DNA of 32,000 nt from Candidatus Aldehydirespirator sp. (GCA_965204415.1 CBDBEL010000003.1:864900-896899), one strand, 5' to 3'; shown: positions 3,029-31,035, counted from the stretch's first letter. Made by a program: numbers and translations. The notes: a model not told the origin generated them from the sequence alone.

Positions 3029-3414
3029 CAGTCCTGCTCGAGGATCGCCCAGAGGCCGTGCTCGTGCAGCCGGTACACATCGAACTCGGCCTTCTCCTTC
3101 TGCCCCGACGCCACCACGGCCTTGCCCTCGGTGTGGACCTGCATCATCAGGCGGTGCGCCTTCTGTTGCGAGTAGCCGAACAGCTTGCGGAACACGTAGG
3201 TGACGTAGGACATCAGGTTGACCGGGTCGTCGAGCACGATCACCTTCCAGGGCAGGTCGGGCCGGCGGTCGGTTTCGTCCACCGGGTCCAGGACGGGCGC
3301 GACGGTCGGCGTCGGGGCTGCCGGGGCTGACCCGGCCGCCGCGGGCGGGGTGCGCGTCACGGCCGCCGCGACCTCTGCTGCCGGCGCGTCGGCGGTGACC
3401 GCGGCGGGCGTCAT
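3028..3414 (-). CDS. clpS: ATP-dependent Clp protease adaptor ClpS with an Ala/Pro-rich N-terminal extension
   Basis: The C-terminal core [73 protein letters not shown] is a clear ClpS domain. I chose the start at ATG 3414-3412 because it overlaps the ctaA stop (ATGA). The longer track ORF (to 3672) would run through ctaA in another frame. Confidence 0.9.
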
Positions 3415-4421
3415 GGGCCTGCTACCACAGTCGAGGCTGTGGCCGGTTGTGGGATCGCCGCGGCCATTCCGGCGCCGGGGGCGTGGACGGCCTTGACGAT
3501 CTCTATCCATGTGACTGTCGCCAGGGTCACATGTACTCCTACGAGCAGGGCGGGAACGCCGGTGAAGTACTGCGTATAGCCGACCGCGCCCTGCACGGCG
3601 AGCAGCACTGCAATCCGTCCCATCCGGACGTGCCCAGCCGAGCCCGATGCCCGCAGCCGCCACCACGTCCACGCCACCATCCCTAGCAGGATCACCGCCA
3701 CGATGCTGTGGATCCGGGCCACCTCCCGCACTAGCAGCGGAAGCCTCTCTGCCCGGGTGTCACCGGCATGGGGCCCGGCCCCTGTGACCAGCGTGCCGGT
3801 AACCAGCAATGCCCCGCCGACCACCAGCACGGCCCACAGCATCAACCGGGTCGTTCCGTCGGGCGGGTTCGGGCGGCGGGGCCGGGTCGTTCCGTCGGGC
3901 GGGTGAGCCGTTCGCGACTCGGCGGACGCAAGCCCCGCGTCGCTGCGGGCTCGGACATCGAGCACGGCCGCGTTCCATAGCAGCACCATCGACAGCAGGA
4001 AATGCCCCATGGTGAAGCGAGGGTCGAGTTCGGACAGCACCAGCAGGGCTCCCAGCCCGACCTGGGCCAGCACCCCGGCCACCAGGCCCAGCGACAGCAT
4101 GATCAGGTCGGCCCGGCGCGGCTTCCGCCGCCAGGAGCCCAGCACGGCCCCCATCACCGCGATGGCCACCACCCCGGTGAAGAGCCGGTTCACGAACTCG
4201 ACCAGGGCGTGATACTCCAGGTCGGCCACGAAGCGGTCCTCGGAGCAGGTGGGCCAGTCCTCGCAGCCCAGCCCCGACCCGGTGAGGCGCACGGACACGC
4301 CGGTCACCACTATGGCCGCGAGCGCCCAGAGGGCGAACCGGGTGAGCCGAGCGTAGGTCGAAGGGGCCACAGTCTGATCGTACGGCCAAAGGGCCGGGGT
4401 TGGAATACGGCGCATCCACAT
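3411..4421 (-). CDS. ctaA: heme A synthase (COX15/CtaA family)
   Basis: 336 aa polytopic protein. It has the N-terminal loop [12 protein letters not shown] and His-bearing helices ([35 protein letters not shown]) typical of CtaA. It lies divergent to ctaB. Confidence 0.85.
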
Positions 4422-4469
4422 GCGGCGCCCGGCCGGGGAGGCCGGGGCTGGGGGCTGGTGGGCAGTCCA

Positions 4470-4901
4470 TCACGCGGCGTCCCGGCTGTCCTCACCGTCG
4501 TTGCCGTCGGGTTGCGGATGGGTGGCGTCGAGTCGTCCCTCGATGCGGGCCAGGCGCTCGCGTGCGTCATTGAGGCTGGCACTGAGGTCGTCGAGCCTGT
4601 CGCTGAAGTCGTCGAGCCTGTCGCTGAAGTCGTCGAGCCTGCCGCCGATGGCGCCGATGGCGGCGCGCAGCAGGTCGAACTGTTCGGCGGTCCACTCGCG
4701 GTTTTTCTGGTTGGTTCTCTCGATCAGCTCGGCGGTCCACTCGCGGGTCTTGGTGCTGTCGACATGCTGGTAGCGCATCAGGGTTACGGCCAACCCCACG
4801 ATGGGCAGGACGAACGCCAGGATGACGGGGGTGAGCTCCCATGAAGAGGCCGTCTCGGCCTGAGCCTGCCCGATGACCGCGGCAACCGTCGATAGTGCCA
4901 T
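4470..4901 (-). CDS. hypothetical single-pass membrane protein with a heptad-repeat (coiled-coil) tail
   Basis: The ORF has one TM segment (LTPVILAFVLPIVGLAVTLM). After it come REWTAE x2 and RLDDFSD/RLDDFSD/RLDDLSA heptads. I chose ATG 4901-4899 (MALSTVAAV...) as the start. ATG 4949 or TTG 4961 are also possible. GC3-rich codon usage supports this being a real gene. I recognise no family. Confidence 0.5.
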   Translation of the reverse strand: MALSTVAAVIGQAQAETASSWELTPVILAFVLPIVGLAVTLMRYQHVDSTKTREWTAELIERTNQKNREWTAEQFDLLRAAIGAIGGRLDDFSDRLDDFSDRLDDLSASLNDARERLARIEGRLDATHPQPDGNDGEDSRDAA

Positions 4902-5097
4902 GACAGCACCGTAGCTATCTGGCGACACTGTCGCAACTCCAAACAGCATGAAATATGTCAATCAGGCATTCAGGCTGCCGTTGGCACTTCGGGCAGGGCC
5001 TGACCGCTGGCACGGCCAGCCGGACGGCAAGACGGGCCTCACCACCTGCGGCGACACCGGCCCGACATTTTGCAGCGGATGGCCGTAGCCTTTCGGC

Positions 5098-6006
5098 GTG
5101 ACCGGAACCGTCACCGGAGGTCTGCGCGCCCCCCGCCGCGCCCGTGCAGCGGCCTTCGTCGCGCTGACGAAGCCCCGCATAGTCGAGTTGCTGCTGGTCA
5201 CCACGGTTCCCTCGATGGTTCTGGCCGAGCGAGGCCTGCCGTCGCTGTGGCTCATGGGGGCCACCGTTCTGGGGGGCGCGATGGCTGCCGGCGGGGCCAA
5301 CGCGCTCAACATGTACGTCGACCGGGACATCGATCGGCTCATGCACCGCACCCGGAACCGGCCCCTGGTCACCGGCGCGGTCCGCCCTACCGAGGCGATC
5401 GTCTTCGCGGTGGCCCTGACCGCCGGCTCATTCGTGTGGCTGTGGGCCTTCGTGAACCTGCTGTCGGCCGCGCTGGCCGCCGCGGCTGCCCTGTTCTACG
5501 TGTTCGTCTACTCGCTGTGGCTCAAGCGGACCTCCATCCGCAACATCGTGATTGGCGGCGCGGCCGGAGCGGTGCCGACCCTTGTGGGCTGGACCGCGGT
5601 CACGGGATCGCTCGACTGGCCCCCGGTGGTGCTGTTCGCGGTGATCTTCTACTGGACGCCTCCCCACTTCTGGGCCCTCGCCATCCGCTACCGCAGCGAC
5701 TATGAGGCCGCCGAGGTGCCGATGCTCCCTGCGGTGGCCGGGCTGCGAGCGACCGCTCGCCGCATCGTCGCCTACACGCTCGCGCTGTGGGCCCTGACCC
5801 TGGTGCTTGTGCCGGTGGCGTCGATGGGCGTCCTGTATGTCGTGGCTGCGCTGGTCCTCGGCGCGGGCTTCCTCGCGCTGGCTGTCGACGTGCTGCGCCG
5901 CCCGGATCCGACCCGGTCAATGCGCCTCTTCGGCTGGTCGAACGCCTACATCGTGCTGCTCTTCGGAACGGTCGCGGCCGATGTCCTGATCCGTAACGGG
6001 TTCTAG
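5098..6006 (+). CDS. ctaB: protoheme IX farnesyltransferase (heme O synthase)
   Basis: 302 aa UbiA-type prenyltransferase. Blocks include LTKPRIVELLL, NMYVDRDIDRLMHRTRNRPLVTG and FYWTPPHFWALA. The start is GTG. Confidence 0.9.
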   Translation: MTGTVTGGLRAPRRARAAAFVALTKPRIVELLLVTTVPSMVLAERGLPSLWLMGATVLGGAMAAGGANALNMYVDRDIDRLMHRTRNRPLVTGAVRPTEAIVFAVALTAGSFVWLWAFVNLLSAALAAAAALFYVFVYSLWLKRTSIRNIVIGGAAGAVPTLVGWTAVTGSLDWPPVVLFAVIFYWTPPHFWALAIRYRSDYEAAEVPMLPAVAGLRATARRIVAYTLALWALTLVLVPVASMGVLYVVAALVLGAGFLALAVDVLRRPDPTRSMRLFGWSNAYIVLLFGTVAADVLIRNGF

Positions 6007-6115
6007 GGATGGAGCCGTGTTCCTCCCCCGCCGGCGCATCGTGCCTTGCGGTGACCCCTGAGCCTTCACGCCGATTGTCGGTGGCCCCATCGTCAATGTG
6101 TAGCATCGCCTCCCG

Positions 6116-7660
6116 ATGACGCTGACCGAGTCCCCCGTCGCGGAATCGGAGGCCGCGTCCGCCGACGGCGGAGCGGCCGCGCCGGCGTCCGCCGCGGAGA
6201 CACTCGGGACGCCCCGGGGCCTGGCCCAGCCGTTCATGACCAGCGACGCGGCGCAGGTCGGAAGGCTCTTCGTGGTCACGTCGCTCCTGCTGGCGCTGGG
6301 CACGGCCGTCATCGGCGTGCTGCTCTCGCTGGGACGCACCGATGCGGTAGCTGCCGACGACCTGTTCGGCGGCCTCAACGCGTACTTCCGCATGTGGACG
6401 CTCTACCGGGTGTCGTTCGTGCTGCTGGTGGTGATGCCGCTGCTTCTCGGCCTGGCCCTCGCGGTTGTGCCGGCCCAGGTGGGAGCGGGCAATGTCGCGT
6501 TCGGTCGAGCCGCGCTGGCGTCGTTCTGGTCGTGGCTGATCGGCGCGGTGATCGTCGTCGCATCGGTGCTCGCGGGAGGGGGCTGGGGCGCCCTCGACGG
6601 CGTGACCGGCAACGAGAGCGACGCCATGGCGCTCACGCTGCTCGGCACCGGCATGGTGATCGTCGCCCTGCTGCTCGGAGCCATCGTGGTCGCCACCACC
6701 GTGATCTCGCTGCGCCAGACCGGCATGAGCCTCCTCGACGTGCCCCCCTTCTCCTGGTCGATGCTGGTGACCGCAGTGGTGTGGCTGTTCTCCCTGCCGG
6801 TGGCCATCGCCAACATCGTGGTCATCTACGCAGACTTGCGGGGCCGGCCGGCCGTCGCCTTCGGCCGGCCCGAGAGCCCCGACATCTGGCTCCAACTCGA
6901 CTGGCTGGTGGAGCAGCCCGCCGTGTACGCGGTGGCCGTGCCGGTGCTCGGCATCATCTTCAGTGCGGCCGGCGCGGCCGTCGGTGCCCGCTCCAGCCGC
7001 CCCGAGGCCATGCTCATCGTGGTGGGGCTGTTCGGCCTGCTGGCGATGGGCGGCTGGTCACAGGACTACTTCACCGCCCCGCAGGACCTCCGCGACGGGC
7101 TCGTATACGTGGCGTTCGGCCTGGCCGCCGTCGTGCCGGTAGTGGCCACCGCCGGCGGCGTCGGCGAGTTGGTGATGCGGGGCTCGAAGACACTGGACCG
7201 GCTCCTGGACACACGCATGCTCGGCGCGGGCGCGGCGCTCAAGCTTCTCGGTGCAGCCGCTCTGGTCGGGGCGCTGCGAGTGATCGAGCCCCTCGACCTG
7301 CTTGAGACCTCCGCCACCTGGGCGGTGTTCCACGGTGTCGTTGTCGCCGGCCTCGTCGCGGCCGTGGCTGCTCTGGCGACCTGGTCGCAGCTGCTGTTCG
7401 GCCCCATCCAGCAGAGGATTGCCCGGGGAGCGATCGTGCTGCTGTTCGGCGGCGGCGGGCTGCTGGTGCTGGCCGACCTTATTTCTGGCTTCGTCGCCGA
7501 TGATCCTGATCTCATGGCCCTCGCGCTCGATGGCAGCGCCGTACTCAACGTGGTGGCCCTGATCGGATCCCTGCTGGTGGCGGCCGGGTTGGCCGCAGCT
7601 CTGGCTGGGGTGGCCTCGGCATTTAAATCGTCCGCGGCGCTCGCGAGCGAGGCGGCATGA
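6116..7660 (+). CDS. heme-copper oxidase subunit I-like polytopic membrane protein lacking the canonical heme/CuB histidine ligands
   Basis: 514 aa. It aligns by eye with CtaD of this window: YFRMWTLYRVSFVLLVVMPL vs YNQVYTMHGVTMVFLFIMPL, VGAGNVAFGRAALASFWSWL vs IGARDVAFPRLNALSYWIWL, LRQTGMSLLDVPPFSWSML vs MRAPGMTLMRMPVLTWMLL, and LDWLVEQPAVYAVAVPVLG vs LFWIFGHPEVYIIILPAFG. The whole protein contains a single His. Confidence 0.85.
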   Translation: MTLTESPVAESEAASADGGAAAPASAAETLGTPRGLAQPFMTSDAAQVGRLFVVTSLLLALGTAVIGVLLSLGRTDAVAADDLFGGLNAYFRMWTLYRVSFVLLVVMPLLLGLALAVVPAQVGAGNVAFGRAALASFWSWLIGAVIVVASVLAGGGWGALDGVTGNESDAMALTLLGTGMVIVALLLGAIVVATTVISLRQTGMSLLDVPPFSWSMLVTAVVWLFSLPVAIANIVVIYADLRGRPAVAFGRPESPDIWLQLDWLVEQPAVYAVAVPVLGIIFSAAGAAVGARSSRPEAMLIVVGLFGLLAMGGWSQDYFTAPQDLRDGLVYVAFGLAAVVPVVATAGGVGELVMRGSKTLDRLLDTRMLGAGAALKLLGAAALVGALRVIEPLDLLETSATWAVFHGVVVAGLVAAVAALATWSQLLFGPIQQRIARGAIVLLFGGGGLLVLADLISGFVADDPDLMALALDGSAVLNVVALIGSLLVAAGLAAALAGVASAFKSSAALASEAA

Positions 7661-8241
7661 GAACGACCGAGCTCCCCGCGGCGGAGGCGACCCGCCCCCG
7701 CACCGTCGTTGTCGGCGCCCTGCTGGCCACGGGGGCGGCCTTCATGGCCTTCGCCGCGCTTGTCTCGGTGTACGTCCAGCAGCGCCAGCAGGCTGTGGCC
7801 CTGGGCGAGGAGTGGTTCCCGTCCGGCACGGTCGAGCTCGGCCCCGCCGGAATGATGATGATGACGCTGGCGCTGTCCGTGGTGACGGTGCAGTGGGCGG
7901 TGCAGGCCGCCCGGGCCGAGGACCGGCCTCACGGGTTCATCGCGCTGGGGGTCACCCTGATGTTCGGCGCCGCAGTGATCAACCAGTTCTGGTTCGTCTA
8001 CCAGGACACCGCCTTCGCCATCGACGACGGCCGGGCCGAGTTGCTGTTCTACGCGGTCACCGGCTCGTTCATCGCCATGCTCATCGCGGCGATGGCGATG
8101 CTGGCGGTGACCACCATCCGCTCGCTGCTAGGGCCCTTCGGCCGCGATCTGGCCCACGCGGTACAGGCCTCGGCCACGTTCTGGCATATGTGCGTGCTGT
8201 GCTACTTCCTGGTCTGGTACGTCGTGTTCATCACCAAGTAG
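7657..8241 (+). CDS. heme-copper oxidase subunit III-like (short, ~5-TM) membrane protein
   Basis: 194 aa. ELLFYAVTGSFIAMLIAAMAML aligns with SSAFFTLTGFHGVHVSLGIVML of CtaE. SATFWHMCVLCYFLVWYVVF aligns with VGLYWHFVDIVWIFIFTVIY. Its start overlaps the upstream stop (ATGA). Confidence 0.75.
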   Translation: MRTTELPAAEATRPRTVVVGALLATGAAFMAFAALVSVYVQQRQQAVALGEEWFPSGTVELGPAGMMMMTLALSVVTVQWAVQAARAEDRPHGFIALGVTLMFGAAVINQFWFVYQDTAFAIDDGRAELLFYAVTGSFIAMLIAAMAMLAVTTIRSLLGPFGRDLAHAVQASATFWHMCVLCYFLVWYVVFITK

Positions 8242-8257
8242 GGCAGGCAGACCGAGC

Positions 8258-9070
8258 ATGTTCACCACCGGATTCAAGTTCTTCTTCGGACTGTTCGTCG
8301 CCTTCACCGGGGCTGCGCTCGTCTACGGCTACACCACCGGCGGCAACCACGTCGGCCCCATCTCGCTGGGTTGGAAGGGCGGAGTGGGCGACCATATCGG
8401 CTACGGGGTGCTCGTCGGGCTGGCCGCAGTCTCTCTGACCGTCAGCCTGGTGCTGGTGTCGTTCCGCGACGCCGACGCCTCGGCCCAGGCCCGCCTCCAG
8501 AACGTTGCCGAGGTGCTCACCGACCAGCCGGTGGCGGCCAGCTTCTGGCCGGTGGTCGCCGCTTTCGGCGTGGGCGCGGCCGCGGTTGGCCTGGTGCTGC
8601 ACCCCATGGTGTTCGTGCTGGGCCTCGCCCTGATCTTCCTTTCGCTGATCGAGTGGACGATGGACGGCTGGTCCGACCGGGCTACCGGCGACGCCGCGAT
8701 CAACCGGGAGCTGCGCAACCGCATCATGGCGCCCATCGAGATCCCCGTCGTGGGCACGCTCGGTGTGGCCGTGATCGTGCTGGCCGCCTCTCGCATCCTG
8801 CTGAACGTGTCGAAGCTGGAGGCAGTGTGGGTCGCGGGCGTCGTGTCGGCGCTGATCCTGATCGGCGCCTGGGTGTACACCAACCGGCCCGGTCTCGGCC
8901 GCCGTCTCGTGCGGATCCTGGGACCCGTGGCGGCCCTGCTGCTGGTGGTGGGCGGGGTGCTGGCGGCGGTGGCCGGCGAGCGCGAGTTCGTCCACCACGA
9001 CGTCGAGCACCAGTCCGACGACACCCACGAGGAGTCCGGTGAGCCGGCCGTGCCTGAGGAAGGCCACTGA
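8258..9070 (+). CDS. polytopic membrane protein; N-terminal half resembles actinobacterial oxidase subunit IV (CtaF), followed by extra TM helices and an acidic/His-rich tail
   Basis: 270 aa. It has two N-terminal TMs (FKFFFGLFVAFTGAALVYGY; GVLVGLAAVSLTVSLVLVSF). A PVAASFWPVVAAFGVGAAAVGLVL..LALIFLSLIEW hairpin then parallels HLPSPSFWPLAVAVGLPLIGYGLIF..LLTVASLYSW at the CtaD C-terminus. It lies 16 nt after the previous gene and ends 1 nt before the ctaC GTG. Confidence 0.7.
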   Translation: MFTTGFKFFFGLFVAFTGAALVYGYTTGGNHVGPISLGWKGGVGDHIGYGVLVGLAAVSLTVSLVLVSFRDADASAQARLQNVAEVLTDQPVAASFWPVVAAFGVGAAAVGLVLHPMVFVLGLALIFLSLIEWTMDGWSDRATGDAAINRELRNRIMAPIEIPVVGTLGVAVIVLAASRILLNVSKLEAVWVAGVVSALILIGAWVYTNRPGLGRRLVRILGPVAALLLVVGGVLAAVAGEREFVHHDVEHQSDDTHEESGEPAVPEEGH

Positions 9071-9071
9071 C

Positions 9072-10301
9072 GTGCGTACGTTGACGCCCGCCCGTGGCCT
9101 CGCCTGGGTGCTGGTGCTGCTGGGCGCAGTCGTTGTCACCGGCTGCGCAACCGACGCCGAGCTCGACACGTTCGCGCCGCAAGGCCCGATCGCCAGGGAA
9201 CTGCACTCCAGGGGAGTGCTTCCCGTCTTCTGGATCGCCGCGGTGGTGATGGTGGGCATCACGGTGGCCATGGTCTGGCTGATATGGCGGTACCGGGTCA
9301 AGAGCTACCGGGGCGACGACGAGTGGCCCGCCCAGACCCATGGCCATGTCCCGCTCGAGGTGGGCTGGACCGTGGGGTTCCTCGTCACCATGGCCGCGGT
9401 AGCGGTCATCATGCTGTGGTCACTTCCCACCGTGGACGCCACCGAGGTCAACAAGATGAGCGTCGAAATCGAGGACCGGAGCGTCGAGTGGGAACCCACC
9501 GTGGTGGTTGTGGGCAACCAGTGGTGGTGGGAGTTCCGCTACTACTTCACCGATCAGGTCGACTTGGCCGATCTGAGGGCCCATGGCGATGCCAAGACGC
9601 TGCCGCCGGCCGACATCGTCACCTCCGGCCAGATGATGATCCCCACCGGCGAGGAGATCGAGCTGATCATCACGGCGCGCGATGTGATCCACTCGTTCTG
9701 GATCCCAGCCCTCAACGGCAAGCGCGACGCGGTGCCCAACCGTTTCTCGCCCTGGAAGCTCGAGGCCTCCGATCCCGGCTTCTACTTCGGGCAGTGCACC
9801 GAGTTCTGCGGCCTGTCGCACTCCCGCATGAGGATGCAAGTGGTGGCGCTGACCCCCGCGGACTTCCAGTCGTGGGTCGACGCCACCACTCAGGACGCGG
9901 TCGAGCCCACCGATCCGGATGCACTGGCGGGCCTGGAGGTGTTCTCCGGCATCTGCACCTCCTGCCACGTCATCGAGGGAGTCAACGACGACGTCTTCGA
10001 GAGCGCCGACCAGGCATCCGGAGCGGCGCCCAACCTGACCCACTTCGCCAACCGGAGCACCTTCGCCGGCGGCATCTTCAACACCTACAACGCCGACGGG
10101 TCGCTCAACCGGGTCCAGCTCGAGGCCTGGCTCCGCAACCCCGGAGACCTCAAGGCCAACTACACCGTGCCGGGCGAGCAGTACCGGGGCATGCCCGATC
10201 TGGACCTGAGCGAGCAGCAGATCGACGACCTGGTGGCCTACCTTGCAGGGCTGGGGAAGCGGCCCGCAGGCTGGATCATCGAAGCGACCCAGGTGGAGTG
10301 A
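9072..10301 (+). CDS. ctaC: cytochrome c oxidase subunit II with fused C-terminal cytochrome c domain (caa3-type), probable lipoprotein
   Basis: The CuA site is HSFWIPALNGKRD...CTEFCGLSHSRM. The C-terminal heme c motif is CTSCH, with a downstream GMP Met. The signal/lipobox is LLGAVVVTGC. I chose the GTG at 9072, which follows GAGGAAGG. An in-frame ATG at 9039 is the alternative. Confidence 0.9.
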   Translation: MRTLTPARGLAWVLVLLGAVVVTGCATDAELDTFAPQGPIARELHSRGVLPVFWIAAVVMVGITVAMVWLIWRYRVKSYRGDDEWPAQTHGHVPLEVGWTVGFLVTMAAVAVIMLWSLPTVDATEVNKMSVEIEDRSVEWEPTVVVVGNQWWWEFRYYFTDQVDLADLRAHGDAKTLPPADIVTSGQMMIPTGEEIELIITARDVIHSFWIPALNGKRDAVPNRFSPWKLEASDPGFYFGQCTEFCGLSHSRMRMQVVALTPADFQSWVDATTQDAVEPTDPDALAGLEVFSGICTSCHVIEGVNDDVFESADQASGAAPNLTHFANRSTFAGGIFNTYNADGSLNRVQLEAWLRNPGDLKANYTVPGEQYRGMPDLDLSEQQIDDLVAYLAGLGKRPAGWIIEATQVE

Positions 10302-10342
10302 CATGGCGCATACCGAGGTAACGACCGGGGAGGTGCACGAGC

Positions 10343-12343
10343 ATGGCGATCACTGAGAAGACGCCCCTCGAGCTCGGCCCGGGCGACAGCGCCCGGTACG
10401 CCGAGCGGCCCCTTGGCATATTCACCCGCCCCCAGGGCGGTCGGGGCTGGCGAGACTGGCTCAGCACCGTCGACCACAAGCGCATCGGGATCCTGTACGG
10501 CGCCTCCGCGATGTTCTTCTTCCTGGTGGGCGGCGTCGAGGCGCTGCTCATCCGGCTGCAGCTGGCCGCCCCGGAGGGCTCGGTGCTCAGCGCCGACGTC
10601 TACAACCAGGTGTACACCATGCACGGCGTCACCATGGTGTTCCTGTTCATCATGCCGCTGGCCGCCGCCTTCGCGAACTACTTCATCCCCCTGCAGATCG
10701 GCGCCCGCGACGTGGCCTTCCCCCGGCTCAACGCGCTCTCGTACTGGATCTGGCTGTCGGGGGCCATCTTCTTGAACACGTCGTGGATCGTGGGCGGAGG
10801 CGGCGCCGACTGCGGGTGGTTCTGCTACTCGACCAACAGCGGCGTGGCCTTCTCGCCCAGCCACGGCGTGGACTTCTACGCCATCGGCCTGCAGATCCTG
10901 GGCATCGCCTCGCTGGTGTCGTCGGTGAACCTGATCGTCACCTGCCTCAACATGCGGGCCCCCGGCATGACGCTGATGCGGATGCCGGTGCTCACCTGGA
11001 TGCTGCTGATCACCCAGTTCCTGTTGCTGTTCGCGCTGCCGGTGATCACGGTGGCCCTGTTCCTGCTGATGTTCGACCGGCTCTTCGACGCCCAGTTCTT
11101 CAACCCCGACGCGGGCGCCGACCCGCTCTTATGGCAGCACTTATTCTGGATCTTCGGGCATCCGGAGGTGTACATCATCATCCTGCCCGCCTTCGGGGTG
11201 GTGTCGGAGATCATCCCCACCTTCAGCCGCAAGCCCCTGTTCGGCTACGAGTTCATGGTGTTCTCTGGGATCGCCATCGGGTTCATGGGCTGGGGCGTTT
11301 GGGCCCACCACATGTTCGTGTCGGGCATAGGCCCCATCTCGGTGGCCGCCTTCTCCCTGTCGACCATGTTCATCGCAGTGCCAACGGGGGTGAAGGTCCT
11401 CAACTGGCTTGCCACGATGTGGGGCGGGAAGCTGCGCTTCACGGTGGCCATGAAGTTCGCGGTGGCCACGGTGGCCATGTTCACCATCGGCGGGCTGTCG
11501 GGCGTGACCCACTCGGTGGCACCGGCCGACACCCAGCAGACCGACACCTACTACATCGTGGCCCACTTCCACTACGTGATCTTCGGCGGCGGCGTGCTCG
11601 GCCTGTTCGCGGGCCTCTACTTCTGGTGGCCCAAGGTGTGGGGCCACTTCCTCAACGAGCGGCTCGGCAACTGGAACTTCTGGATCATGCTGGTGGGCTT
11701 CAACCTCACCTTCGGCCCCATGCACATCCTGGGCCTTCAGGGCATGTCGCGCCGCATCGACACCTACGCACGGGGCTACGGCTTCGAGTTCTGGAACATG
11801 GCGGCCACCGTGGGGTCGCTGCTCCTGGCGGTGAGCGTGCTGGTGTTCATCTGGAACGTGGTCAAGTCCAAACGCGACGCCCCCCACCTGCCCCCGCCCG
11901 GTCCGGACCCCTGGGACGCCCGCAGCCTCGAGTGGTCGATCCCGTCGCCGGTGCCGGTCCACAACTTCGACACCGTGCCTCAGGTGCACGGCCGCGACGA
12001 GTGGTGGCACACCAAGTACGCCGAGAACGACGAGGGCCAGGTTGTGCGGGTCGCCACCGTTGAGGAGGCCGCCCAGACCGGCGAGGCCACCGGCGTGCAC
12101 CTGCCGTCGCCGTCGTTCTGGCCGCTGGCGGTGGCGGTCGGGCTGCCGCTCATCGGCTACGGCCTGATCTTCAACCTTTGGCTGGCGCTGATCGGCGCGC
12201 TCCTGACGGTCGCCTCCCTCTACTCGTGGGCCATGGAGCCGGTAGACGACCCCGACGCAACCCACGACCACCACGAAGCAGACCACCACGAGGACCACGC
12301 CGAGCCCGAGGCCGGGGCCGACGACGAAGGCGACCAGCCATGA
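10343..12343 (+). CDS. ctaD: cytochrome c oxidase subunit I with a ~107-aa C-terminal extension (CtaF-like TM hairpin plus His/Asp-rich tail)
   Basis: All six canonical His ligands are present (TMHG, WIFGHPEVY, WAHHMF, VAHFHYV). The extension from about nt 12020 contains HLPSPSFWPLAVAVGLPLIGYGL...SLYSWAMEP and then DATHDHHEADHHEDHAEPE. Confidence 0.95.
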   Translation: MAITEKTPLELGPGDSARYAERPLGIFTRPQGGRGWRDWLSTVDHKRIGILYGASAMFFFLVGGVEALLIRLQLAAPEGSVLSADVYNQVYTMHGVTMVFLFIMPLAAAFANYFIPLQIGARDVAFPRLNALSYWIWLSGAIFLNTSWIVGGGGADCGWFCYSTNSGVAFSPSHGVDFYAIGLQILGIASLVSSVNLIVTCLNMRAPGMTLMRMPVLTWMLLITQFLLLFALPVITVALFLLMFDRLFDAQFFNPDAGADPLLWQHLFWIFGHPEVYIIILPAFGVVSEIIPTFSRKPLFGYEFMVFSGIAIGFMGWGVWAHHMFVSGIGPISVAAFSLSTMFIAVPTGVKVLNWLATMWGGKLRFTVAMKFAVATVAMFTIGGLSGVTHSVAPADTQQTDTYYIVAHFHYVIFGGGVLGLFAGLYFWWPKVWGHFLNERLGNWNFWIMLVGFNLTFGPMHILGLQGMSRRIDTYARGYGFEFWNMAATVGSLLLAVSVLVFIWNVVKSKRDAPHLPPPGPDPWDARSLEWSIPSPVPVHNFDTVPQVHGRDEWWHTKYAENDEGQVVRVATVEEAAQTGEATGVHLPSPSFWPLAVAVGLPLIGYGLIFNLWLALIGALLTVASLYSWAMEPVDDPDATHDHHEADHHEDHAEPEAGADDEGDQP

Positions 12344-12461
12344 GCGCGGCAGCAGACCCAACCCGACAGGCCGGGGGGTGGCACGGGGGCAAGGAATGGC
12401 GGCGCTGGCGCCGCCAGGCCGCGCCCGTGACAGGACCCGCCGGCCGGAACGGAGTCTGCCA

Positions 12462-13094
12462 GTGAGCACAGAACCTCTCATCGCCGATCCCGGCCATGAA
12501 GTGGCTGATCACGGCCATGACCCGCACGCCACGACCACGGGCCTGTCGCACACCAAGCTGGCCATGTGGGTGTTCCTGGGCTCGGAATGCCTGCTGTTCG
12601 GCGGGCTGATCTCCACTTACCTGCTGTACAAGACCCGGGGCAACGGTCGCACGCTGCCCACCGACGTGTTCGACATCCCGTTCACGTCGGTGAGCTCGTT
12701 CGTGCTGCTGATGAGCTCCCTCACGATGGTGCTGGCCCTCTCCGCGGTGTCCCGGGGCGAGGACGAGGCCGGCCGCACCTGGCTGCTGGCCACCGCGCTG
12801 CTAGGCGGGATATTCATCGGCGGGCAGGTGTACGAGTTCACCAGCTTCGTACGGGAGGGCGTCGCCTTCACCACCAACCCGGCCAGCAGCGCCTTCTTCA
12901 CCCTGACCGGCTTCCACGGCGTGCACGTGAGCCTCGGCATCGTGATGCTGATGTCGCTGTTCGTGGCGTCGGTGAAGGGCAAGCTGACCCAGCGCAACGC
13001 GGAGACGGTGGAGATCGTCGGCCTCTACTGGCACTTCGTGGACATCGTGTGGATCTTCATATTCACTGTGATCTACCTGATCCCCGCCGACTGA
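12462..13094 (+). CDS. ctaE: cytochrome c oxidase subunit III (short form)
   Basis: Blocks include FFTLTGFHGVHVSLG and GLYWHFVDIVWIFIFTVIYL. I chose the GTG at 12462, which follows GGAG. The track ORF start at 12378 would add an R/P-rich extension. Confidence 0.9.
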   Translation: MSTEPLIADPGHEVADHGHDPHATTTGLSHTKLAMWVFLGSECLLFGGLISTYLLYKTRGNGRTLPTDVFDIPFTSVSSFVLLMSSLTMVLALSAVSRGEDEAGRTWLLATALLGGIFIGGQVYEFTSFVREGVAFTTNPASSAFFTLTGFHGVHVSLGIVMLMSLFVASVKGKLTQRNAETVEIVGLYWHFVDIVWIFIFTVIYLIPAD

Positions 13095-13099
13095 TTCCT

Positions 13100-13501
13100 A
13101 TGAGCGACACCGCCACCTCCGAGCACCCCGAGCACGCGGCCGACGCAGCCGGCGAGCACTCCGACGCCGACCACGACGAGGGCCACGCCCATCCCTCCGA
13201 CGCCGACCACGACGAGGGCCACGCCCATCCTTCGGACTGGGCCTACGCCAAGATCGCCATCGTGCTCGCCCTGGTCACCGCGCTGGAGGTGTTCACCTAC
13301 TTCGACACGGTGCTCGACTGGGGGGCGTTCCTGATCCCGTCGCTCATCTTCATGATGATCGTCAAGTTCTATTTGGTGGCCACCTGGTTCATGCACCTGC
13401 GCTTCGACAGCAAGCTGTTCGGCCGGATGTTCACCGCGGGGCTCATCCTGGCCGTCGGCGTGTACGTGGTCACGCTGACGGTCTTCGAGTTCTGGGTCTA
13501 G
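13100..13501 (+). CDS. ctaF: small cytochrome c oxidase subunit IV (Bacillus CtaF / prokaryotic COX4-type) with a His/Asp-rich N-terminal repeat
   Basis: 133 aa starting at ATG 13100 (MSDTATSEHPEH...). Three TM helices follow WAYAKIAIVLALVTALEVFTYF. Its position after ctaE matches B. subtilis ctaF. In the track it is hidden in the 3' part of ORF 12566..13501. Confidence 0.8.
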   Translation: MSDTATSEHPEHAADAAGEHSDADHDEGHAHPSDADHDEGHAHPSDWAYAKIAIVLALVTALEVFTYFDTVLDWGAFLIPSLIFMMIVKFYLVATWFMHLRFDSKLFGRMFTAGLILAVGVYVVTLTVFEFWV

Positions 13502-13604
13502 TGCTGTGCCGCCCGAGTGGACGGGGCAGCCCATGAGCCCCCACCGGCGGGTCGGGGCGGTTCGCGGCGCCCCGGTCGGCGCCGCCACGGACCGCTAGCC
13601 GGCT

Positions 13605-14510
13605 ATGGGCGCGCTGGCCGCCACCGACGCCTGGCGCTTCCAGTTCCATCCCGAGGTGTGGCTGACCGTCGCGCTGCTGGTCGGCCTCGCCGTCTATGTG
13701 GTGCGGGTGGTGGCCCCCGTCGCGGTGGCTCCGGGTGTGGCCGCGGTCACCAAGCGCCAGCGACTGTGCTTCATCGTGGGCGTGGCCCTGCTGTGGGTGT
13801 CGGCGGATTGGCCCATGCACGACATCGCCGAGGAGTACCTGTACTCGGTGCACATGGTGCAGCACCTGCTGATCAGCTTCGTGGTGCCGCCGCTGCTGCT
13901 CATGGCGGTGCCCGAGTGGCTGGCCCGGCTCATCGTGGTCGACGGCTCGCTCTCCGCCAAGGTCATCCGCCGCCTGGTGCACCCGCTGGTGGCGGGGGTG
14001 GTCTTCAACGCGCTGCAGGGCCTGATGCACTGGAACACCCTGGTGGAGCTGTCGGTCCGCAGCGGCCCCTTCCACTACGCCATGCACCTGCTCATGTTCA
14101 CCAGCGCGCTGGCCATGTGGATGGCGGTGGTAGGGCCTCTCAAGGAGTTCCACCTGTCCGAGCCGGCCAAGATGGTCTACCTGTTCACGATGTCGATCAT
14201 CCCCACCGTGCCGGCCGCCTGGCTGACCTTCGCCGAGGGCTCGGTGTACCCGGTCTACGACCACGCCCAGCGCTTGTTCGGCATCTCGGTGGCTGCCGAC
14301 CAGCAGGCCGCCGGCGCGGTGATGAAAGTGCTCGGCGGCCTCTACCTGTGGACCCTGATCGCCATCCGATTCTTCCGCTTCTCAGCCGCCCAGCGCCACG
14401 CCGACGCCACCGAGCGCCGCCAGCGCTTCTCGGCCAACACCCTCACCACGGCCGACGTCGAGGCCGAGTTCGAGCGCCTCGGCCCCCCGCCCTCCGAGCC
14501 CCGCCTCTAA
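13605..14510 (+). CDS. ctaG: cytochrome c oxidase assembly factor CtaG (caa3_CtaG family)
   Basis: 301 aa polytopic protein. It has the characteristic SVHMVQHLLISFVVPPLLLMAVPEW block and is the last gene of the cta cluster. Confidence 0.85.
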   Translation: MGALAATDAWRFQFHPEVWLTVALLVGLAVYVVRVVAPVAVAPGVAAVTKRQRLCFIVGVALLWVSADWPMHDIAEEYLYSVHMVQHLLISFVVPPLLLMAVPEWLARLIVVDGSLSAKVIRRLVHPLVAGVVFNALQGLMHWNTLVELSVRSGPFHYAMHLLMFTSALAMWMAVVGPLKEFHLSEPAKMVYLFTMSIIPTVPAAWLTFAEGSVYPVYDHAQRLFGISVAADQQAAGAVMKVLGGLYLWTLIAIRFFRFSAAQRHADATERRQRFSANTLTTADVEAEFERLGPPPSEPRL

Positions 14511-14565
14511 GAGGCCGAGCGGATAACAGCGGTTCCTGCACGCTCAGCGTCTACGGTTGCTGCGG

Positions 14566-15609
14566 ATGTCCAAAATACTACGAGTGCTCACCGGCCTGAG
14601 GGCAGCGGATCGGGTCGAAGGGGGAGTCGCCCGCCGGATCCGGCACTTCGACGGATGGCTCGACAGAGCGTCGGCGCGTGATGCCGACGCTGCGGGCTAT
14701 GACCACACCGAGACCGTCAAGGAGTACTACGACATCTCCAACGAGCTGATGGTGTGGGGTTGGGGCGAGTCCCTGCACTTCGCGCCGCTGTCGCCCGGCG
14801 AGAGCGTGCACGACTCCAAGATCAGGCACCAGCGGCTGATGATCTCCAAGCTGGAGCTGCGCGAGGGCATGACGGTGGTCGATGTCGGCTGCGGGATCGG
14901 CGGCCCGATGCGCCGGGTTGTCTCGGAGGCCGGCGTCAGGGTCGTCGGGGTCAACATCAATGAGACCCAGATGGACCGGACGAGGTCGTTGAACACCGCG
15001 GCCGGACTCGATCACATGGTCGACTACCTCGTGTGCAGCTTCATGGACATGTCGGCCGTCGCGGACGGCACCTTCGATCGCGGCTACGCGATCGAATCGA
15101 CATGCCATGCGCCGGACAAGGAGGGCGCATTCGCCGAGATCTACCGCGTGCTGAAGCCCGGAGCCCTCTTCTGGGGCCAGGAGATGTGCATGACGGACAG
15201 GTTCGATCCAGCCGACGAGCAGCATGCGGCCATGAAGCAGGACCTCATGCACGGCATCGCGCTCAAGGACATCGCAACCTTCGGCGAGGTGGACCGGGCC
15301 CTCGAGGCGGCCGGGTTCGAGGTCATCGAGGGAATGGATCGGGGCGCCGGGGAGGACGGCACGACCACGCCGTGGTACCAGCCCCTGGAGAGCTGGAGCA
15401 GAACGTTGGGCAACTCCTTCATCGGGGTTCCGCACGGCCGCAGGACGGCGATCGGAGGATCCAAGCTGGCCGAGGTGCTGAGGATCCTCCCGAAGGGCTC
15501 CGCGGACGTCATCGAGATGCTGGACCGGACGGCCAGCGCTTATGCCGCCGGCGGCCGGTCCGGGATCTTCACGCCGCTCTACTGCTTCCTAGCTCGCAAG
15601 CCCGAGTAG
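14566..15609 (+). CDS. SAM-dependent methyltransferase of the sterol 24-C-methyltransferase (ERG6/SMT) family
   Basis: It is collinear with yeast Erg6 as I remember it. [21 protein letters not shown] matches [30 protein letters not shown] matches [20 protein letters not shown] matches YAIEATCHAP, and [10 protein letters not shown] matches YKVLKPGGTF. TPWYQPL matches IPWYYPL, and [19 protein letters not shown] matches GGKSKLFTPMMLFVAKKPE. I chose ATG 14566; the track ORF starts at TTG 14557. Confidence 0.85.
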   Translation: [347 protein letters not shown]

Positions 15610-17668: not shown

Positions 17669-19195
17669 TCAGTTCTGGGGCACGACCGCGGTGCGGTGCC
17701 TGCGGGTCTCCTCGTCGCGGTGCCGGTCTGCCGGAGTGCGGCGGGACGGGCCCGCCACCGTTGAGCCGTTGGTGGAGGCCGCGGCAGGTTCCTCGGTGCT
17801 CCGGTAGTAGTCGAAGAGCCCGGCCTCGTCGATGATGACCCGGTCGGTGTAGTCGTCGAACCACAGCGCCTCGGGATTGCGCCCCACGATGGCCACCTTG
17901 CCCCGGTCGCCGGCGCCGGCGGGGCTCCGCAGCACCTTGAAGACGACGACCCCGTCCTCCGCGCCGGGCAAACCTGGGATCGGCTCCCGGGTGATTGCCG
18001 ACACCTCGGTCTTGCCCTTGAAGTGCACGCAGGTGAGCCGGGCGTGGGACTCGACTCCAGACAGCCCCTTCTGTGACTCGTTGAGAATGTGCCACGCGGT
18101 CTCGATGGGCACGTTGAAGGCCTTGTAGGCCACGATGTTCCGGCCGCCGAAGAAGTAGTGGTTCTCGATGCCTGCCGCCTTGAGAGTCCGTTGCAGGATG
18201 CGCAGGGCATCGGCGTCGTCGTTGACCCCCCGGATGATCGGCGACTGGTTCTCAACGCATATCCAGCCCCGCGACACGACCGCGTCGACGGCCCGGCGGG
18301 TGCTGGGGATCCACTGGTAGTGCCCGTGATCGCCCTGGATGTAGCTGCCGTCGGCGTCCTTGGCCAGCAGCTCGTCCGGATGGTTGAAGTGCACCATGAG
18401 CCGGAGAGCGACGTCGGGGTAGACCTCGTGGAACCGGTCGATCATCGACAGGAAAGCGTCGTCGAAGCGGTCAGGATGGAAGGCGAGCTCCTTGGTCCCC
18501 ACCCTGATGACCTCGGCGCCTGCCTCGGCCAGGGCGGTGAACCAACCGGCCAGCTTGGAGTTGGGGAGCACCATCGGATCGCCCCCCGAGAGCAGGATCT
18601 CCCTCAGCTTGGGCCGGCCAGTCTCGGGATGGCGGCCGCCGTTGGCTTTGACGGCGGCGTTGTGGGTCCGGATGTATTCGGTCACCTCGGCGACCTGGGC
18701 GAGGCCCTTCTTCTTGACGGTGCCGTCGGCTCGCTCGATGTCCTTGCGGCCGATCAGTTCCTCCCGGTAGCAGAAACGGCAGTGCGCCGAGCAGGTTGAG
18801 ATCACATACAGCAGTGCCATCTCGTACTTGTGGAGGATCCCCTCGACCGGGCTGTAGTTGAGTTGGCTGGCGGGGTCCTCCTCGCCGTCGAGGTTCAGGG
18901 TCTCGTCCGGCGAGCCCTTGACCAGCGTCTGGAGGGCCGGGCTGTTGCGGGCCATGTCGAAGTAGTGGCGGGTGATCTTGACCGGCATGCGGTCCTCGAC
19001 GTCGCGGTCGGTTCCCTTGAGGCTTTGCAGGTCGGACAGCTCGACCGGGGTGTAGAAGCCGCGCATGTCCTCGGGCGCGCTTCCGTTGATGAACGGGTCC
19101 AGACCATTGACGATCTGGCGGTCGTAGCGGGGGTTCTCGACGTGGTCGAGAACGAGATTCTCTCTGTCGGTTGGGATGTACTTCGGTCTTGCCAT
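17669..19195 (-). CDS. KamA-family radical SAM protein (2,3-aminomutase-like), long form, substrate unknown
   Basis: The radical SAM cluster motif is CSAHCRFCYRE, with LLSGGDPMVL and PVKITRHYFDM blocks as in lysine 2,3-aminomutase relatives. I chose ATG 19195-19193 (MARPKYIPT). The upstream 53 codons of the track ORF run into an AT-rich region that looks non-coding. Confidence 0.85.
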   Translation of the reverse strand: MARPKYIPTDRENLVLDHVENPRYDRQIVNGLDPFINGSAPEDMRGFYTPVELSDLQSLKGTDRDVEDRMPVKITRHYFDMARNSPALQTLVKGSPDETLNLDGEEDPASQLNYSPVEGILHKYEMALLYVISTCSAHCRFCYREELIGRKDIERADGTVKKKGLAQVAEVTEYIRTHNAAVKANGGRHPETGRPKLREILLSGGDPMVLPNSKLAGWFTALAEAGAEVIRVGTKELAFHPDRFDDAFLSMIDRFHEVYPDVALRLMVHFNHPDELLAKDADGSYIQGDHGHYQWIPSTRRAVDAVVSRGWICVENQSPIIRGVNDDADALRILQRTLKAAGIENHYFFGGRNIVAYKAFNVPIETAWHILNESQKGLSGVESHARLTCVHFKGKTEVSAITREPIPGLPGAEDGVVVFKVLRSPAGAGDRGKVAIVGRNPEALWFDDYTDRVIIDEAGLFDYYRSTEEPAAASTNGSTVAGPSRRTPADRHRDEETRRHRTAVVPQN

Positions 19196-19260
19196 GATAT
19201 ATCTCAGCTTACTTTTATTATACGTGTAGTGACAGTTCGTTCCGCTGGACTGTCCACAGC
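19196..19260. promoter_or_regulatory. AT-rich divergent control region between the KamA-like gene and serS
   Basis: The sequence is locally AT-rich (ATATCTCAGCTTACTTTTATTATACGTGTAGTGACAG) in otherwise high-GC DNA. A TATAAT hexamer on the minus strand (19222-19217) lies 21 nt upstream of the KamA-like ATG. A perfect 5-1-5 palindrome, TGGACTGTCCA, sits at 19246-19256. Confidence 0.4.
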
Positions 19261-19386
19261 CCGACCCTGACTTGAGGATAAGCCCCGATGTCCGGTTGGG
19301 CAAATGGCACCGCCGGACCGGGAGCGCGGCGGCGCGACCGAGAGCCTGCGCCACGCGCCAGCCAGATGAGCCGGTACTGTCGGGGG

Positions 19387-21397: not shown

Positions 21398-21625
21398 ATG
21401 CCCACATCGATCCGACTGGCGCCCGAGACCGAGGAGCGGATCCGCCTCCTTGCTGCGACGACCGGGCGAACGAAGGCCTTCTACCTCCGTGAGATCATCG
21501 ACCGCGGGCTTGACGACATCGAGGACTACTACTTGGCCGCGGATGTTCTCGAACGCGTCCGCAAGGGCCTAGAGGACGTGCATGGCGCCGGGGAGGTGCG
21601 CAGCGAGCTTGGCATGGAGGATTGA
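21398..21625 (+). CDS. ribbon-helix-helix type II antitoxin (RelB/ParD-like)
   Basis: 75 aa. MPTSIRLAPETEERIRLLAATTGRTKAFYLREII is an RHH signature. The RBS GGAAGGGA lies upstream. The gene overlaps the toxin gene that follows. Confidence 0.75.
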   Translation: MPTSIRLAPETEERIRLLAATTGRTKAFYLREIIDRGLDDIEDYYLAADVLERVRKGLEDVHGAGEVRSELGMED

Positions 21626-21866
21626 GTACACCGGCACTGCGAGGAGCCAGCTCAGGAAGCTCGACAGAAGCACGACGCGCCGGATCTTGGACTACATGGA
21701 TCACCGTGTCGCGGTGGCGGACCCGCGCCGCGTCGGCCAGCCGCTGACCGGGCCGCTCGGCAAGCTGTGGCGCTATCGGGTGGGACGCTTCCGGGTTGTG
21801 TGCGACATCCAGGATGACGCTGTGCGTGTGCTGGTGGTGAGAATCGGCAGACGGGACGAGGTCTAA
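21582..21866 (+). CDS. type II toxin, RelE/ParE family
   Basis: WRIEYTGTARSQLRKLDRSTTRRILDYMD...GKLWRYRVGRFRVVCDIQDDAVRVLVVRIGRRDEV is a typical RelE/ParE layout. A TTG at 21609 (LAWRIEY) is an alternative start. Confidence 0.75.
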   Translation: MAPGRCAASLAWRIEYTGTARSQLRKLDRSTTRRILDYMDHRVAVADPRRVGQPLTGPLGKLWRYRVGRFRVVCDIQDDAVRVLVVRIGRRDEV

Positions 21867-22666: not shown

Positions 22667-23286
22667 AGGGAGGGGGCTGACCAGGCGTTGACGGCATCGA
22701 CTAGGGCGTCGATGAGGGTGCTTACCTGGGGGGCACGGGGAGTTCCGTCGTGGTCGGACCAGTTGCGGGCCTCCTTGTTCCAGCGGATGGTCGGCGGCAA
22801 CTCCAGCTGCACCCCTCCCTTCGGGGGAAGGTTCACCGGGTTGGCCTGGTGCAGTCCCCGCAGCCCCCGCGGAATCTCGTCGAGATCGTCGACCACGCCG
22901 TAGTCGGACGGCAGCGCGGCCCTCAGATGCCCGGCCAGATGGCCGGCGAGCCGCCGGTTGCTTCCCCCCAGCAGCACCTTCCAGAACTGGGTCTCGCGGC
23001 CGTAGCCGTGCACCGCGATGACCGTGTGGACGTGGTCGAGGAACTCCCGGAGGTTGCTGGAGTGCTCGGGCCTGATCGTGATGGAGGGCACGTGCTCGCG
23101 CAGTGGTGCGTGCTGGATGACCGCGTAGAACGAGGTTCCGCTGCGCTCGGCGACCTCCCGGGCGATCACGTCGGTGGTGCGCTCCAGGTTCCCGCCGTGG
23201 AACGCCATGATCCCGAAACGGGCCCGCAGCTCGCACACCTCGTCCACGCCCGGGTGGGCGAGCAGCGCCGGAAAGCCTCCGATCAA
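22654..23286 (-). CDS. poly-gamma-glutamate hydrolase family protein (DUF867/UPF0714)
   Basis: Blocks include FGIMAFHGGNLERTTDVIAREVAERSG, VIAVHGYG, LLGGSN and PVNLPPKGGVQLELP. I chose TTG 23286-23284, which overlaps the upstream TGA (TTGA) and gives 210 aa. The longer track ORF (to 23739) overlaps the CcdA-like gene out of frame. Confidence 0.7.
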   Translation of the reverse strand: MIGGFPALLAHPGVDEVCELRARFGIMAFHGGNLERTTDVIAREVAERSGTSFYAVIQHAPLREHVPSITIRPEHSSNLREFLDHVHTVIAVHGYGRETQFWKVLLGGSNRRLAGHLAGHLRAALPSDYGVVDDLDEIPRGLRGLHQANPVNLPPKGGVQLELPPTIRWNKEARNWSDHDGTPRAPQVSTLIDALVDAVNAWSAPSLKSL

Positions 23287-24455: not shown

Positions 24456-24578
24456 CCCGCTGGAGGTCTCCGCAGGGTGTGTAGCGAGGCCGTGGCCCTA
24501 GCGGCCCGTGAGCGCAGCGAACAAGAGCGGGAATGACAACGCCGCACTGCGAGACAATGGCGAGCAATCCAGGCATGC

Positions 24579-25199: not shown

Positions 25200-25212
25200 G
25201 GTGCAGCCGACG

Positions 25213-25236
25213 GTACCGGTGCCGGCACCGGTGCCG
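25213..25236. repeat. 12-nt tandem duplication forming an 18-nt perfect palindrome in the MBL/ResA intercistronic gap
   Basis: ACCGGTGCCGGCACCGGT (25215-25232) equals its own reverse complement. It is embedded in ACCGGTGCCGGC x2. It lies 11 nt after the MBL stop and 16 nt before the ResA-like ATG. Confidence 0.5.
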
Positions 25237-25242
25237 GTGCGT

Positions 25243-27941: not shown

Positions 27942-28020
27942 AGTCTCAGGCTTGGAGTCTCAGGCTCGGGCATGAGGCTGGAAGTCTCAGGTTCGAGTCA
28001 GGCTTGGAGTGTCAAGCTGC
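27941..28020. repeat. degenerate ~14-bp tandem repeat array (consensus AGTCTCAGGCTTGG, 5-6 copies) in the convergent intergenic gap
   Basis: Successive units are AAGTCTCAGGCTTGG, AGTCTCAGGCTCGGG, (CATGAGGCTGG), AAGTCTCAGGTTCG, AGTCAGGCTTGG and AGTGTCAAGCTGCGG. The array runs between the dut stop and the stop of the minus-strand ORF. Confidence 0.6.
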
Positions 28021-28413: not shown

Positions 28414-28520
28414 ACCCCAAAGAATGCCACGGATCGGCAGGGATTGGCACGGTTGCTGCGGCTGGTGCCGGGCATTTGCGGGGCCGGGCGCCACCGGGGG
28501 CGCCGGTAGCCTGACCGGCG

Positions 28521-31035
<2,515 letters not shown>

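Follow-up and report, generated by a model that had tools for sequence, protein, structure and literature searches.

A conserved three-gene module, predicted to encode a second membrane core with few cofactors, inside the caa3 oxidase operon of Acidimicrobiales

Results

Gene organization of the cta locus

Few membrane enzymes have been studied as thoroughly as the heme-copper oxidases. In a 32,000-nt stretch of DNA from Candidatus Aldehydirespirator sp. (GCA_965204415.1 CBDBEL010000003.1:864900-896899; G+C about 69%; hereafter referred to as the window), we identified within the region 5098-14510 an operon for a caa3-type cytochrome c oxidase, in which three additional genes, designated I', III' and orf3, are inserted between ctaB and ctaC. 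I' encodes a protein with the fold of oxidase subunit I in which five of the six histidine ligands of the catalytic enzyme are gone, III' encodes a paralogue of subunit III, and orf3 a membrane protein with resemblance to the actinobacterial subunit CtaF. As judged from the sequences, the three-gene module would represent the membrane core of the oxidase in a second version that is poor in cofactors, conserved, maintained by selection, locked into the operon, and non-catalytic.

A total of ten genes were identified in the cta region using Pfam and NCBIfam (Table 1), all with native codon bias (G+C content at the third codon position, GC3, 0.84-0.96); the GC3 of I', III' and orf3 (0.89-0.94) is the same as that of the adjoining genes. 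The order, with ctaA divergent and then ctaB-ctaC-ctaD-ctaE-subunit IV-ctaG, is that of a Bacillus-style caa3 operon, and agrees with the ctaA/ctaBCDEFG locus of B. subtilis in the divergent ctaA and in the fusion of cytochrome c to ctaC as well. The window differs from the B. subtilis locus in the three genes inserted between ctaB and ctaC and in a QoxB/CyoB-like C-terminal two-helix extension of CtaD. A set of three paralogues inside such an operon had been proposed in a first-pass annotation made from the same DNA, and the proposal was supported herein by Pfam and NCBIfam matches together with hhalign homology; the gene map and the spacings given there also agree with our coordinates, i.e., -4 nt between I' and III' (the start of III' overlaps the stop of I'), 16 nt between III' and orf3, and 1 nt between orf3 and ctaC.

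The 1-nt spacing presumes that ctaC starts at GTG 9072, which is just preceded by GAGGAAGG and yields a lipoprotein-type signal ending in VTGC; with the other possible start, GTG 9039, ctaC overlaps orf3 by 32 nt. The terminator scan detected no terminator-like site in the intergenic gaps, the only two such sites, fewer than expected by chance, being located within genes. No promoter-like site was found in the promoter scan, and the Rfam and tRNA scans gave no match. Co-transcription of the module with the cta genes would be consistent with the overlap of 4 nt, the narrow gaps and the lack of terminator-like sites in them.

The genuine CtaC and CtaD carry all the canonical motifs. The translation of ctaC shows the CuA motif and, in the fused cytochrome c domain, the CxxCH motif (as CTSCH), and the ctaD product retains all six His ligands and ends in the two-helix extension, with a match to PF12270 at residues 580-632. 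No second subunit II is encoded within the three-gene module.

Table 1. Genes and other sequence features of the window, with the evidence for each assignment.
Feature	Position	Strand	Evidence or description
ctaA (heme A synthase)	3411-4421	-	PF02628 COX15-CtaA, E 1.2e-18; divergent from ctaB
ctaA/ctaB intergenic region	4422-5097		about 676 nt
small open reading frame	4470-4901/4949	-	143-159 aa; one membrane helix, coiled coil, tandem DRLDDFS repeats
ctaB (heme O synthase)	5098-6006	+	NF003349, 393.6 bits (cutoff 246); PF01040, E 2.3e-66
I' (subunit I paralogue)	6116-7660	+	514 aa, 12 helices; PF00115, E 2.7e-33; GC3 0.89
III' (5-helix subunit III paralogue)	7657-8241	+	194 aa; PF00510, E 4.1e-11, 43.7 bits (cutoff 23.8)
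orf3	8258-9070	+	270 aa, 7 helices; no Pfam family
orf3, C-terminal His/Asp/Glu-rich tail	8975-9070		
ctaC (subunit II, caa3 type)	9072-10301	+	PF00116, E 4e-23; PF00034, E 1e-4; TIGR02866, 154 bits (cutoff 147.7)
ctaD (genuine subunit I)	10343-12343	+	TIGR02891, 683.8 bits (cutoff 670.75)
CtaD, C-terminal His/Asp/Glu-rich tail	12250-12343		
ctaE (genuine 5-helix subunit III)	12396-13094	+	PF00510, E 3.8e-19; CyoC- and QoxC-type matches, about 1e-43
CtaE, N-terminal His/Asp/Glu-rich tail	12396-12560		
subunit IV, Bacillus type (COX4_pro)	13100-13501	+	PF03626, E 8e-8
subunit IV, N-terminal His/Asp/Glu-rich tail	13100-13240		
ctaG (Caa3_CtaG copper-insertion factor)	13605-14510	+	PF09678, E 9.6e-37
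S-adenosylmethionine-dependent methyltransferase	14557-15609	+	PF08498 (sterol methyltransferase C-terminal), E 7e-15; CMAS domain
561-aa open reading frame	17669-19354	-	no Pfam family; weak radical-SAM-like signal, E 0.016
ParE-family toxin gene	21582-21866	+	
CcdA/DsbD-type membrane protein and thioredoxin-like (ResA-type) protein	23283-25280	-	cytochrome c maturation
171-aa open reading frame	28012-28527	-	no family

I' has the fold of subunit I without the catalytic centre

I' covers positions 2-434 of the 436-position PF00115 model and has the 12-helix fold of COX1, and its alignment with CtaD by hhalign gave a probability of 99.9-100. The homology to A-family subunit I (CtaD/CoxA, PF00115) extends over the full length: M. 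smegmatis CtaD (180 bits) and B. subtilis QoxB (172 bits) are both matched by the profile of the I' family, and the two groups have in common structural residues (Gly, Pro and Trp) as well as the motif PxQVGA...AFPR in the loop between helices 2 and 3. On the CtaD_CoxA equivalog model TIGR02891, however, I' reached 137.4 bits, far under the cutoff of 670.75, which the neighbouring CtaD passes. I' terminates after helix 12, and the extra hairpin is borne by the genuine CtaD itself.

For identification of the ligand positions, I' was aligned with the CtaD of the window using both MAFFT and hhalign, and the two alignments agree. The pattern in I' is Y-Q-Q-D-V-H where that in CtaD is H-H-H-H-H-H. 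The heme a ligand in helix 2 is replaced by Tyr, the first CuB ligand in helix 6 by Gln (with retention of the cross-link Tyr), the His-His pair of CuB in helix 7 by Gln-Asp, and the heme a3 ligand by Val, leaving the heme a ligand in helix 10 as the sole His of the six. In difference from A-family subunit I, both proton pathways are also gone (with Asn for the D-channel Asp, Ala for Glu278, and no K-channel Lys), together with the Mg-site His and the pair of Arg residues by which the heme propionates are bound. The channel substitutions are family-wide: the position of the D-channel Asp is occupied by Thr, Ser, Ala or Asn and that of the K-channel Lys by Val or Leu. From these replacements I' is predicted to be unable to reduce O2 or to pump protons. 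Since there is neither a binuclear centre nor a subunit II, the module cannot form an independent oxidase, as the first-pass annotation had also concluded, and the six-His set was likewise found in none of the 356 full-length members of the I' family that were included in a ligand census (see below).

The loss of ligands sets I' apart from other members of the superfamily with deviating active sites. The NOD and the eNOR/sNOR/gNOR-type families carry altered active-site ligands, yet keep both hemes and a metal site and are catalytic; I' differs from these families in lacking the whole binuclear centre.

III' and orf3 resemble a split subunit III

III' passes the Pfam gathering score for PF00510, and was aligned with CtaE by hhalign with a probability of 96.4 (E 1e-9); its top match in NCBIfam is aa3_CtaE_Actin. 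The third gene, orf3, has 425 homologues, of which the named ones are all 'hypothetical protein' and none carries a Pfam domain. Its product consists of a CtaF-like N-terminal part of about 140 aa that includes a hairpin of helices 3 and 4, followed by another three helices and by a tail rich in His and acidic residues, and a cytoplasmic loop (DRATGD..N..LR.R.M.P.E.P) is strongly conserved.

Four lines converge on the assignment of orf3. In profile comparison with hhalign, residues 93-136 (helices 3-4) matched the hairpin formed by transmembrane helices 13-14 of CtaD with a probability of 89.5 (E 2e-6), with the common motif SFWP..GL..W.M[DE]; in the initial comparison, run without realignment, the unrelated membrane proteins used as controls gave E > 0.1. 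The CtaF family PF12270 was matched by 8 of 24 members of the orf3 family, all below threshold (best E 0.0014), the orf3 of the window itself giving no match to this family. In a sequence search of PDB, the hairpin region was matched to helices 1-2 of a plant COX3 (E 0.03). The AlphaFold2 model of orf3, built on an alignment of 101 sequences with a mean predicted local distance difference test (pLDDT) score of 74 (an earlier model from 24 sequences, with pLDDT 57, was not used), gave as top Foldseek matches in PDB 8hcr_H (probability 0.99) and 7q21_F (0.97), though both matches are weak (E 0.09; target TM-score 0.37-0.41). These are chains of 139 and 143 aa in the bcc-aa3 supercomplexes of M. 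tuberculosis and C. glutamicum, which we take to be CtaF from the chain length and not from the annotation of the entries. Taken together, the CtaD-hairpin profile, PF12270, plant COX3 and Foldseek suggest, each weakly, that orf3 is CtaF-like and the equivalent of helices 1-2 of subunit III. In the bcc-aa3 enzymes, CtaE and CtaF together constitute the canonical subunit III, with helices 1-2 provided by CtaF, and make contacts to the partner complex (PMC8361435).

The nearest likeness of the III'/orf3 pair is with CtaE and CtaF of the actinobacteria M. smegmatis, M. tuberculosis and C. glutamicum, in which helices 1-2 of subunit III are likewise supplied by a separate protein. The orf3 product differs from CtaF in being about twice as long, with three extra helices, the conserved loop and the His/acid-rich tail. 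Moreover, the III'/orf3 pair is accompanied by a ligand-less subunit I, and, unlike the actinobacterial set, the module lies within a Bacillus-style ctaA/ctaB...ctaG operon beside a complete second set of subunits. As orf3 brings the hairpin that CtaD carries fused, I' and the split subunit III would form a structurally self-complete set, with a helix tally of 12 + 5 + 2 plus 5 extra.

The designation of the third gene as 'IV-like' in the first-pass annotation had therefore to be revised. As a Bacillus-type subunit IV, orf3 was rejected: it has no match to COX4_pro (PF03626), and hhalign against the COX4_pro protein of the operon itself gave a probability of 2.2 over 24 terminal columns. Instead of a set of subunits I, III and IV, the module looks rather like subunit I accompanied by an entire subunit III in split form, to which orf3 adds three helices.

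Distribution, synteny and selection

One genome per GTDB species was scanned for the module, which was found in 96 genomes, and 80 loci were retrieved. All originate from metagenome-assembled genomes (MAGs) of Acidimicrobiales, with the exception of one evidently mislabelled bin, and the order ctaA(-)/ctaB/I'/III'/orf3/ctaC/ctaD/ctaE/subunit IV/ctaG is kept in 80/80 loci as far as the contigs reach, with ctaA at the same position in 79 of the 80. The exceptional bin (CAXMSE010000038.1) is a MAG labelled 'uncultured Gammaproteobacteria bacterium'; it carries a complete Acidimicrobiales-type operon with an I' 48% identical to that of the window, and the label is probably due to mislabelled taxonomy or a binning error.

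At least 181 close homologues of I' were detected. An exhaustive HMMER search gave more than 150 I' clusters at 50% identity, all full length and above 204 bits, and the search from the most distant members of I' gave at least 905 proteins, the named ones being from Acidimicrobiales. The gene order is the same in four contigs of a distant clade, ClpS and DUF2017 upstream included, and the majority of their I'/III' and orf3/ctaC junctions have a 1-nt start/stop overlap. In none of the 84 contexts was the module found away from a caa3 operon. Conservation of the order from ctaB through I', III' and orf3 to ctaC was the comparative check proposed in the first-pass annotation, and the order holds for the 80 loci and the four distant contigs alike. 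The carriers are marine, sponge-associated and soil Acidimicrobiales, and the named carriers among the matches are all MAGs.

In the most divergent of the 80 loci, I' is 39-48% identical to its counterpart in the window, III' 42-49% and orf3 50-55%; the corresponding values are 75-83% for CtaD and 50-55% for CtaC. Positions conserved at 95% or more among the 80 loci number 41/194 in III' and 64/270 in orf3. The ratio of nonsynonymous to synonymous substitution rates (dN/dS) against ten close relatives was 0.22 for I', 0.125 for III' and 0.18 for orf3, values lying inside the span of 0.08-0.29 found for the genuine cta genes and indicating that all three module genes are under purifying selection.

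These data bear on another explanation of the module, that the three genes are decaying remnants of a duplicated or displaced oxidase. Such a decay would account for the loss of almost all the ligands from I' and for its faster divergence than that of CtaD at the same depth. Against this stand the intact reading frames, the identical synteny in all 80 species-level genomes and in the distant clades, the native GC3, the low dN/dS (0.13-0.22 in two decimals), the number of full-length I' clusters, and the conservation of orf3. The conservation, synteny and purifying selection lead us to reject the decay reading, which we regard as very improbable; nor is the module, as the first-pass annotation had envisaged as a reason for giving up its proposal, restricted to one genome with signs of decay.

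In a neighbour-joining quartet that took in QoxB of B. subtilis and CtaD of M. smegmatis, I' was monophyletic with 100% bootstrap support, and the sister group was the Acidimicrobiales CtaD in 65% and the mycobacterial CtaD in 34.5% of the bootstrap replicates. The relative PDB scores of I' lean slightly to the actinobacterial type. I' could have arisen by duplication within the operon or could descend from an actinobacterial CtaD/E/F set.

What is kept at the cofactor sites of the I' family

In the census of 356 family members, the ligands of CuB and heme a3 are missing almost everywhere. The residues in their place are not random: at the former CuB positions Gln267 is present in 271 and Gln316 in 255 members, the cross-link Tyr271 is kept in 268, and the neighbouring Trp263 in 347. 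The axial pair for the low-spin heme is His/His in 103 members, Tyr/His, the pair of the window, in 84, His/Tyr in 13 and Tyr/Asn in 39. A chemically competent pair is accordingly present in 200/356 (about 56%), while about 44% have none and yet retain the module. In the distant I' clade, His/His is found in 78/114. These counts suggest that one heme may persist in many lineages, and the series of ligands looks like a stepwise loss of cofactor sites in which the binuclear centre went first. The description of the set as 'non-redox' in the first-pass annotation is not established in view of the competent pair in 200 members, the window included.

Of the I' residues conserved at 85% or more, nearly all are Gly, Pro and Trp and loop residues common to COX1, R50 being the only family-specific polar or charged residue at this level. 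The constraint on I' is centred on helices 2-5 and is loose across the former catalytic half; CtaD is uniformly constrained. The distribution in I' appears scaffold-like, as would be expected of a scaffold, and the conserved face, with the loop between helices 2 and 3, is presumably the one that adjoins subunit III.

The conserved replacements raise the alternative that the module has acquired an independent new function, such as transport of ions or small molecules, sensing, or electron transfer through a single heme, and is merely co-regulated with the oxidase. The conserved Gln/Gln/Tyr/Trp pocket would then serve as the site, and the possible retention of a single heme site is in line with this. 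With R50 alone as a family-specific polar or charged residue, with the residues of the D- and K-channels gone, and with the caa3 operon invariably alongside in the 84 contexts, we consider an independent function improbable, albeit well ahead of decay.

Surroundings of the operon

The divergent intergenic region between ctaA and ctaB is much longer in the window than in close relatives (about 40-80 nt). The small open reading frame with DRLDDFS repeats located therein belongs to no Pfam family, and a homologue (40% identity, same position) was found in one of the 80 related loci. Directly 3' of ctaG lies the gene for a methyltransferase with a CMAS domain and the C-terminal domain of sterol methyltransferases, a notable gene for an apparently marine or sponge-associated genome of Acidimicrobiia. 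Some 9 kb past the 3' end of the oxidase operon are the genes for the CcdA/DsbD-type and ResA-type proteins. The other genes of the window include those for a ParE-family toxin and for proteins of 561 and 171 aa (Table 1).

Tails rich in His, Asp and Glu were found on CtaD, CtaE, subunit IV and orf3, and in subunit IV DADHDEGHAHPSD is present twice. These tails could be metal-binding or proton-collecting segments. The tail of orf3 is expected on the periplasmic side from the positive-inside rule, and those of CtaD, CtaE and subunit IV are likely cytoplasmic.

Discussion

The reading that we favour, and to which we would give an even chance, is that the module is a non-catalytic membrane partner of the caa3 oxidase, either a 'pseudo-oxidase' protomer or a docking module. 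I', III' and orf3, presumably made from the same operon as ctaC-ctaD-ctaE-subunit IV-ctaG, would bind one another, and the core so formed would bind caa3 via subunit-III-type surfaces and act as its stoichiometric structural partner. A structural partner is favoured because the complete I-III architecture is kept, because the start and stop codons of the module overlap or lie within a few nucleotides of those of the structural genes, and because many clades do without the heme ligands. A more specific version, in which caa3 is asymmetric, with the catalytic I-II-III core permanently paired with a dead I'-III' core that maybe carries a single Tyr/His- or His/His-ligated heme, is put forward only tentatively.

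Several points weigh against a purely structural partner. Co-assembly of the module with caa3 is what we infer, and purely so, from the DNA. The competent axial pair in more than half of the family could mean that a cofactor is bound and that the role is not purely structural, and the conserved Gln/Gln/Tyr/Trp in the former CuB pocket could mean cofactor binding or a new site. A precedent for a catalytically dead protomer of a heme-copper oxidase was not found in the literature searched. In addition, exploratory rate covariation among the ten genes gave a partial r of 0.72 for I' and ctaB, together with 0.47 for I' and orf3 and 0.52 for III' and ctaD, correlations that are non-independent and suggestive only, and that were not used as evidence of contact; the I'-ctaB value agrees at least as well with a role in heme handling as with a structural role.

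Such a role is the content of the main alternative, that the module is an assembly scaffold or reservoir in the manner of NifEN, taking heme A or heme O from CtaB and CtaA and passing it to the nascent CtaD, or, in a variant, steadying the assembly intermediates; in both variants the module would be transient and absent from the mature enzyme. NifEN, a paralogue of NifDK encoded beside the catalytic subunits, functions in biogenesis and no longer has all of the cofactor sites; it belongs to an unrelated protein family, and its likeness to I' is by analogy only. In every locus the module follows ctaA/ctaB and precedes the structural genes, as a heme scaffold might, and the axial pairs are non-random and chemically competent in the majority, with His/His prevailing in the distant clade. 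The covariation of I' with ctaB points in the same direction, and no subunit-I-like factor is named among the bacterial oxidase assembly factors that a review lists, the niche not being known to be filled in this lineage.

On the other side, the members without a competent pair, such as those with Tyr/Asn, still keep the module in its place and under purifying selection, and the Arg pair for the heme propionates is lost. A full equivalent of subunit III is not obviously needed by a chaperone, and the overlaps and short gaps with ctaC would suggest an output similar to that of the structural subunits. The scaffold in its two variants, taken jointly, is in our view a possible though somewhat doubtful explanation in absolute terms, and as a heme A scaffold it comes as a close second, nearly as likely as the structural partner.

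A conserved paralogue that has the fold of subunit I and no catalytic centre was not found in the curated families or in the literature searched: Pfam and NCBIfam include no family specific to I' or orf3, and neither the full-text literature search nor the review of assembly factors gave a description of the module. In automatic annotation, I' is labelled 'cytochrome c oxidase subunit I' or 'cbb3-type subunit I', and such oxidase-type labels can inflate the oxidase counts in metabolic reconstructions of MAGs.

The module is widespread, with more than 150 clusters at 50% identity and at least 96 species-level genomes, and its I' family offers a natural series at the low-spin heme site, His/His to Tyr/His to Tyr/Asn, for studying how far the fold tolerates the loss of its cofactors. 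If the heme A scaffold is true, it would bear on how heme A gets to subunit I. If the module is a structural protomer, the picture of the architecture of the caa3 complex would be altered, and an asymmetric caa3, if true, would be the first described case of a pseudo-enzyme protomer or of a NifEN-like cofactor scaffold in the heme-copper oxidase superfamily.

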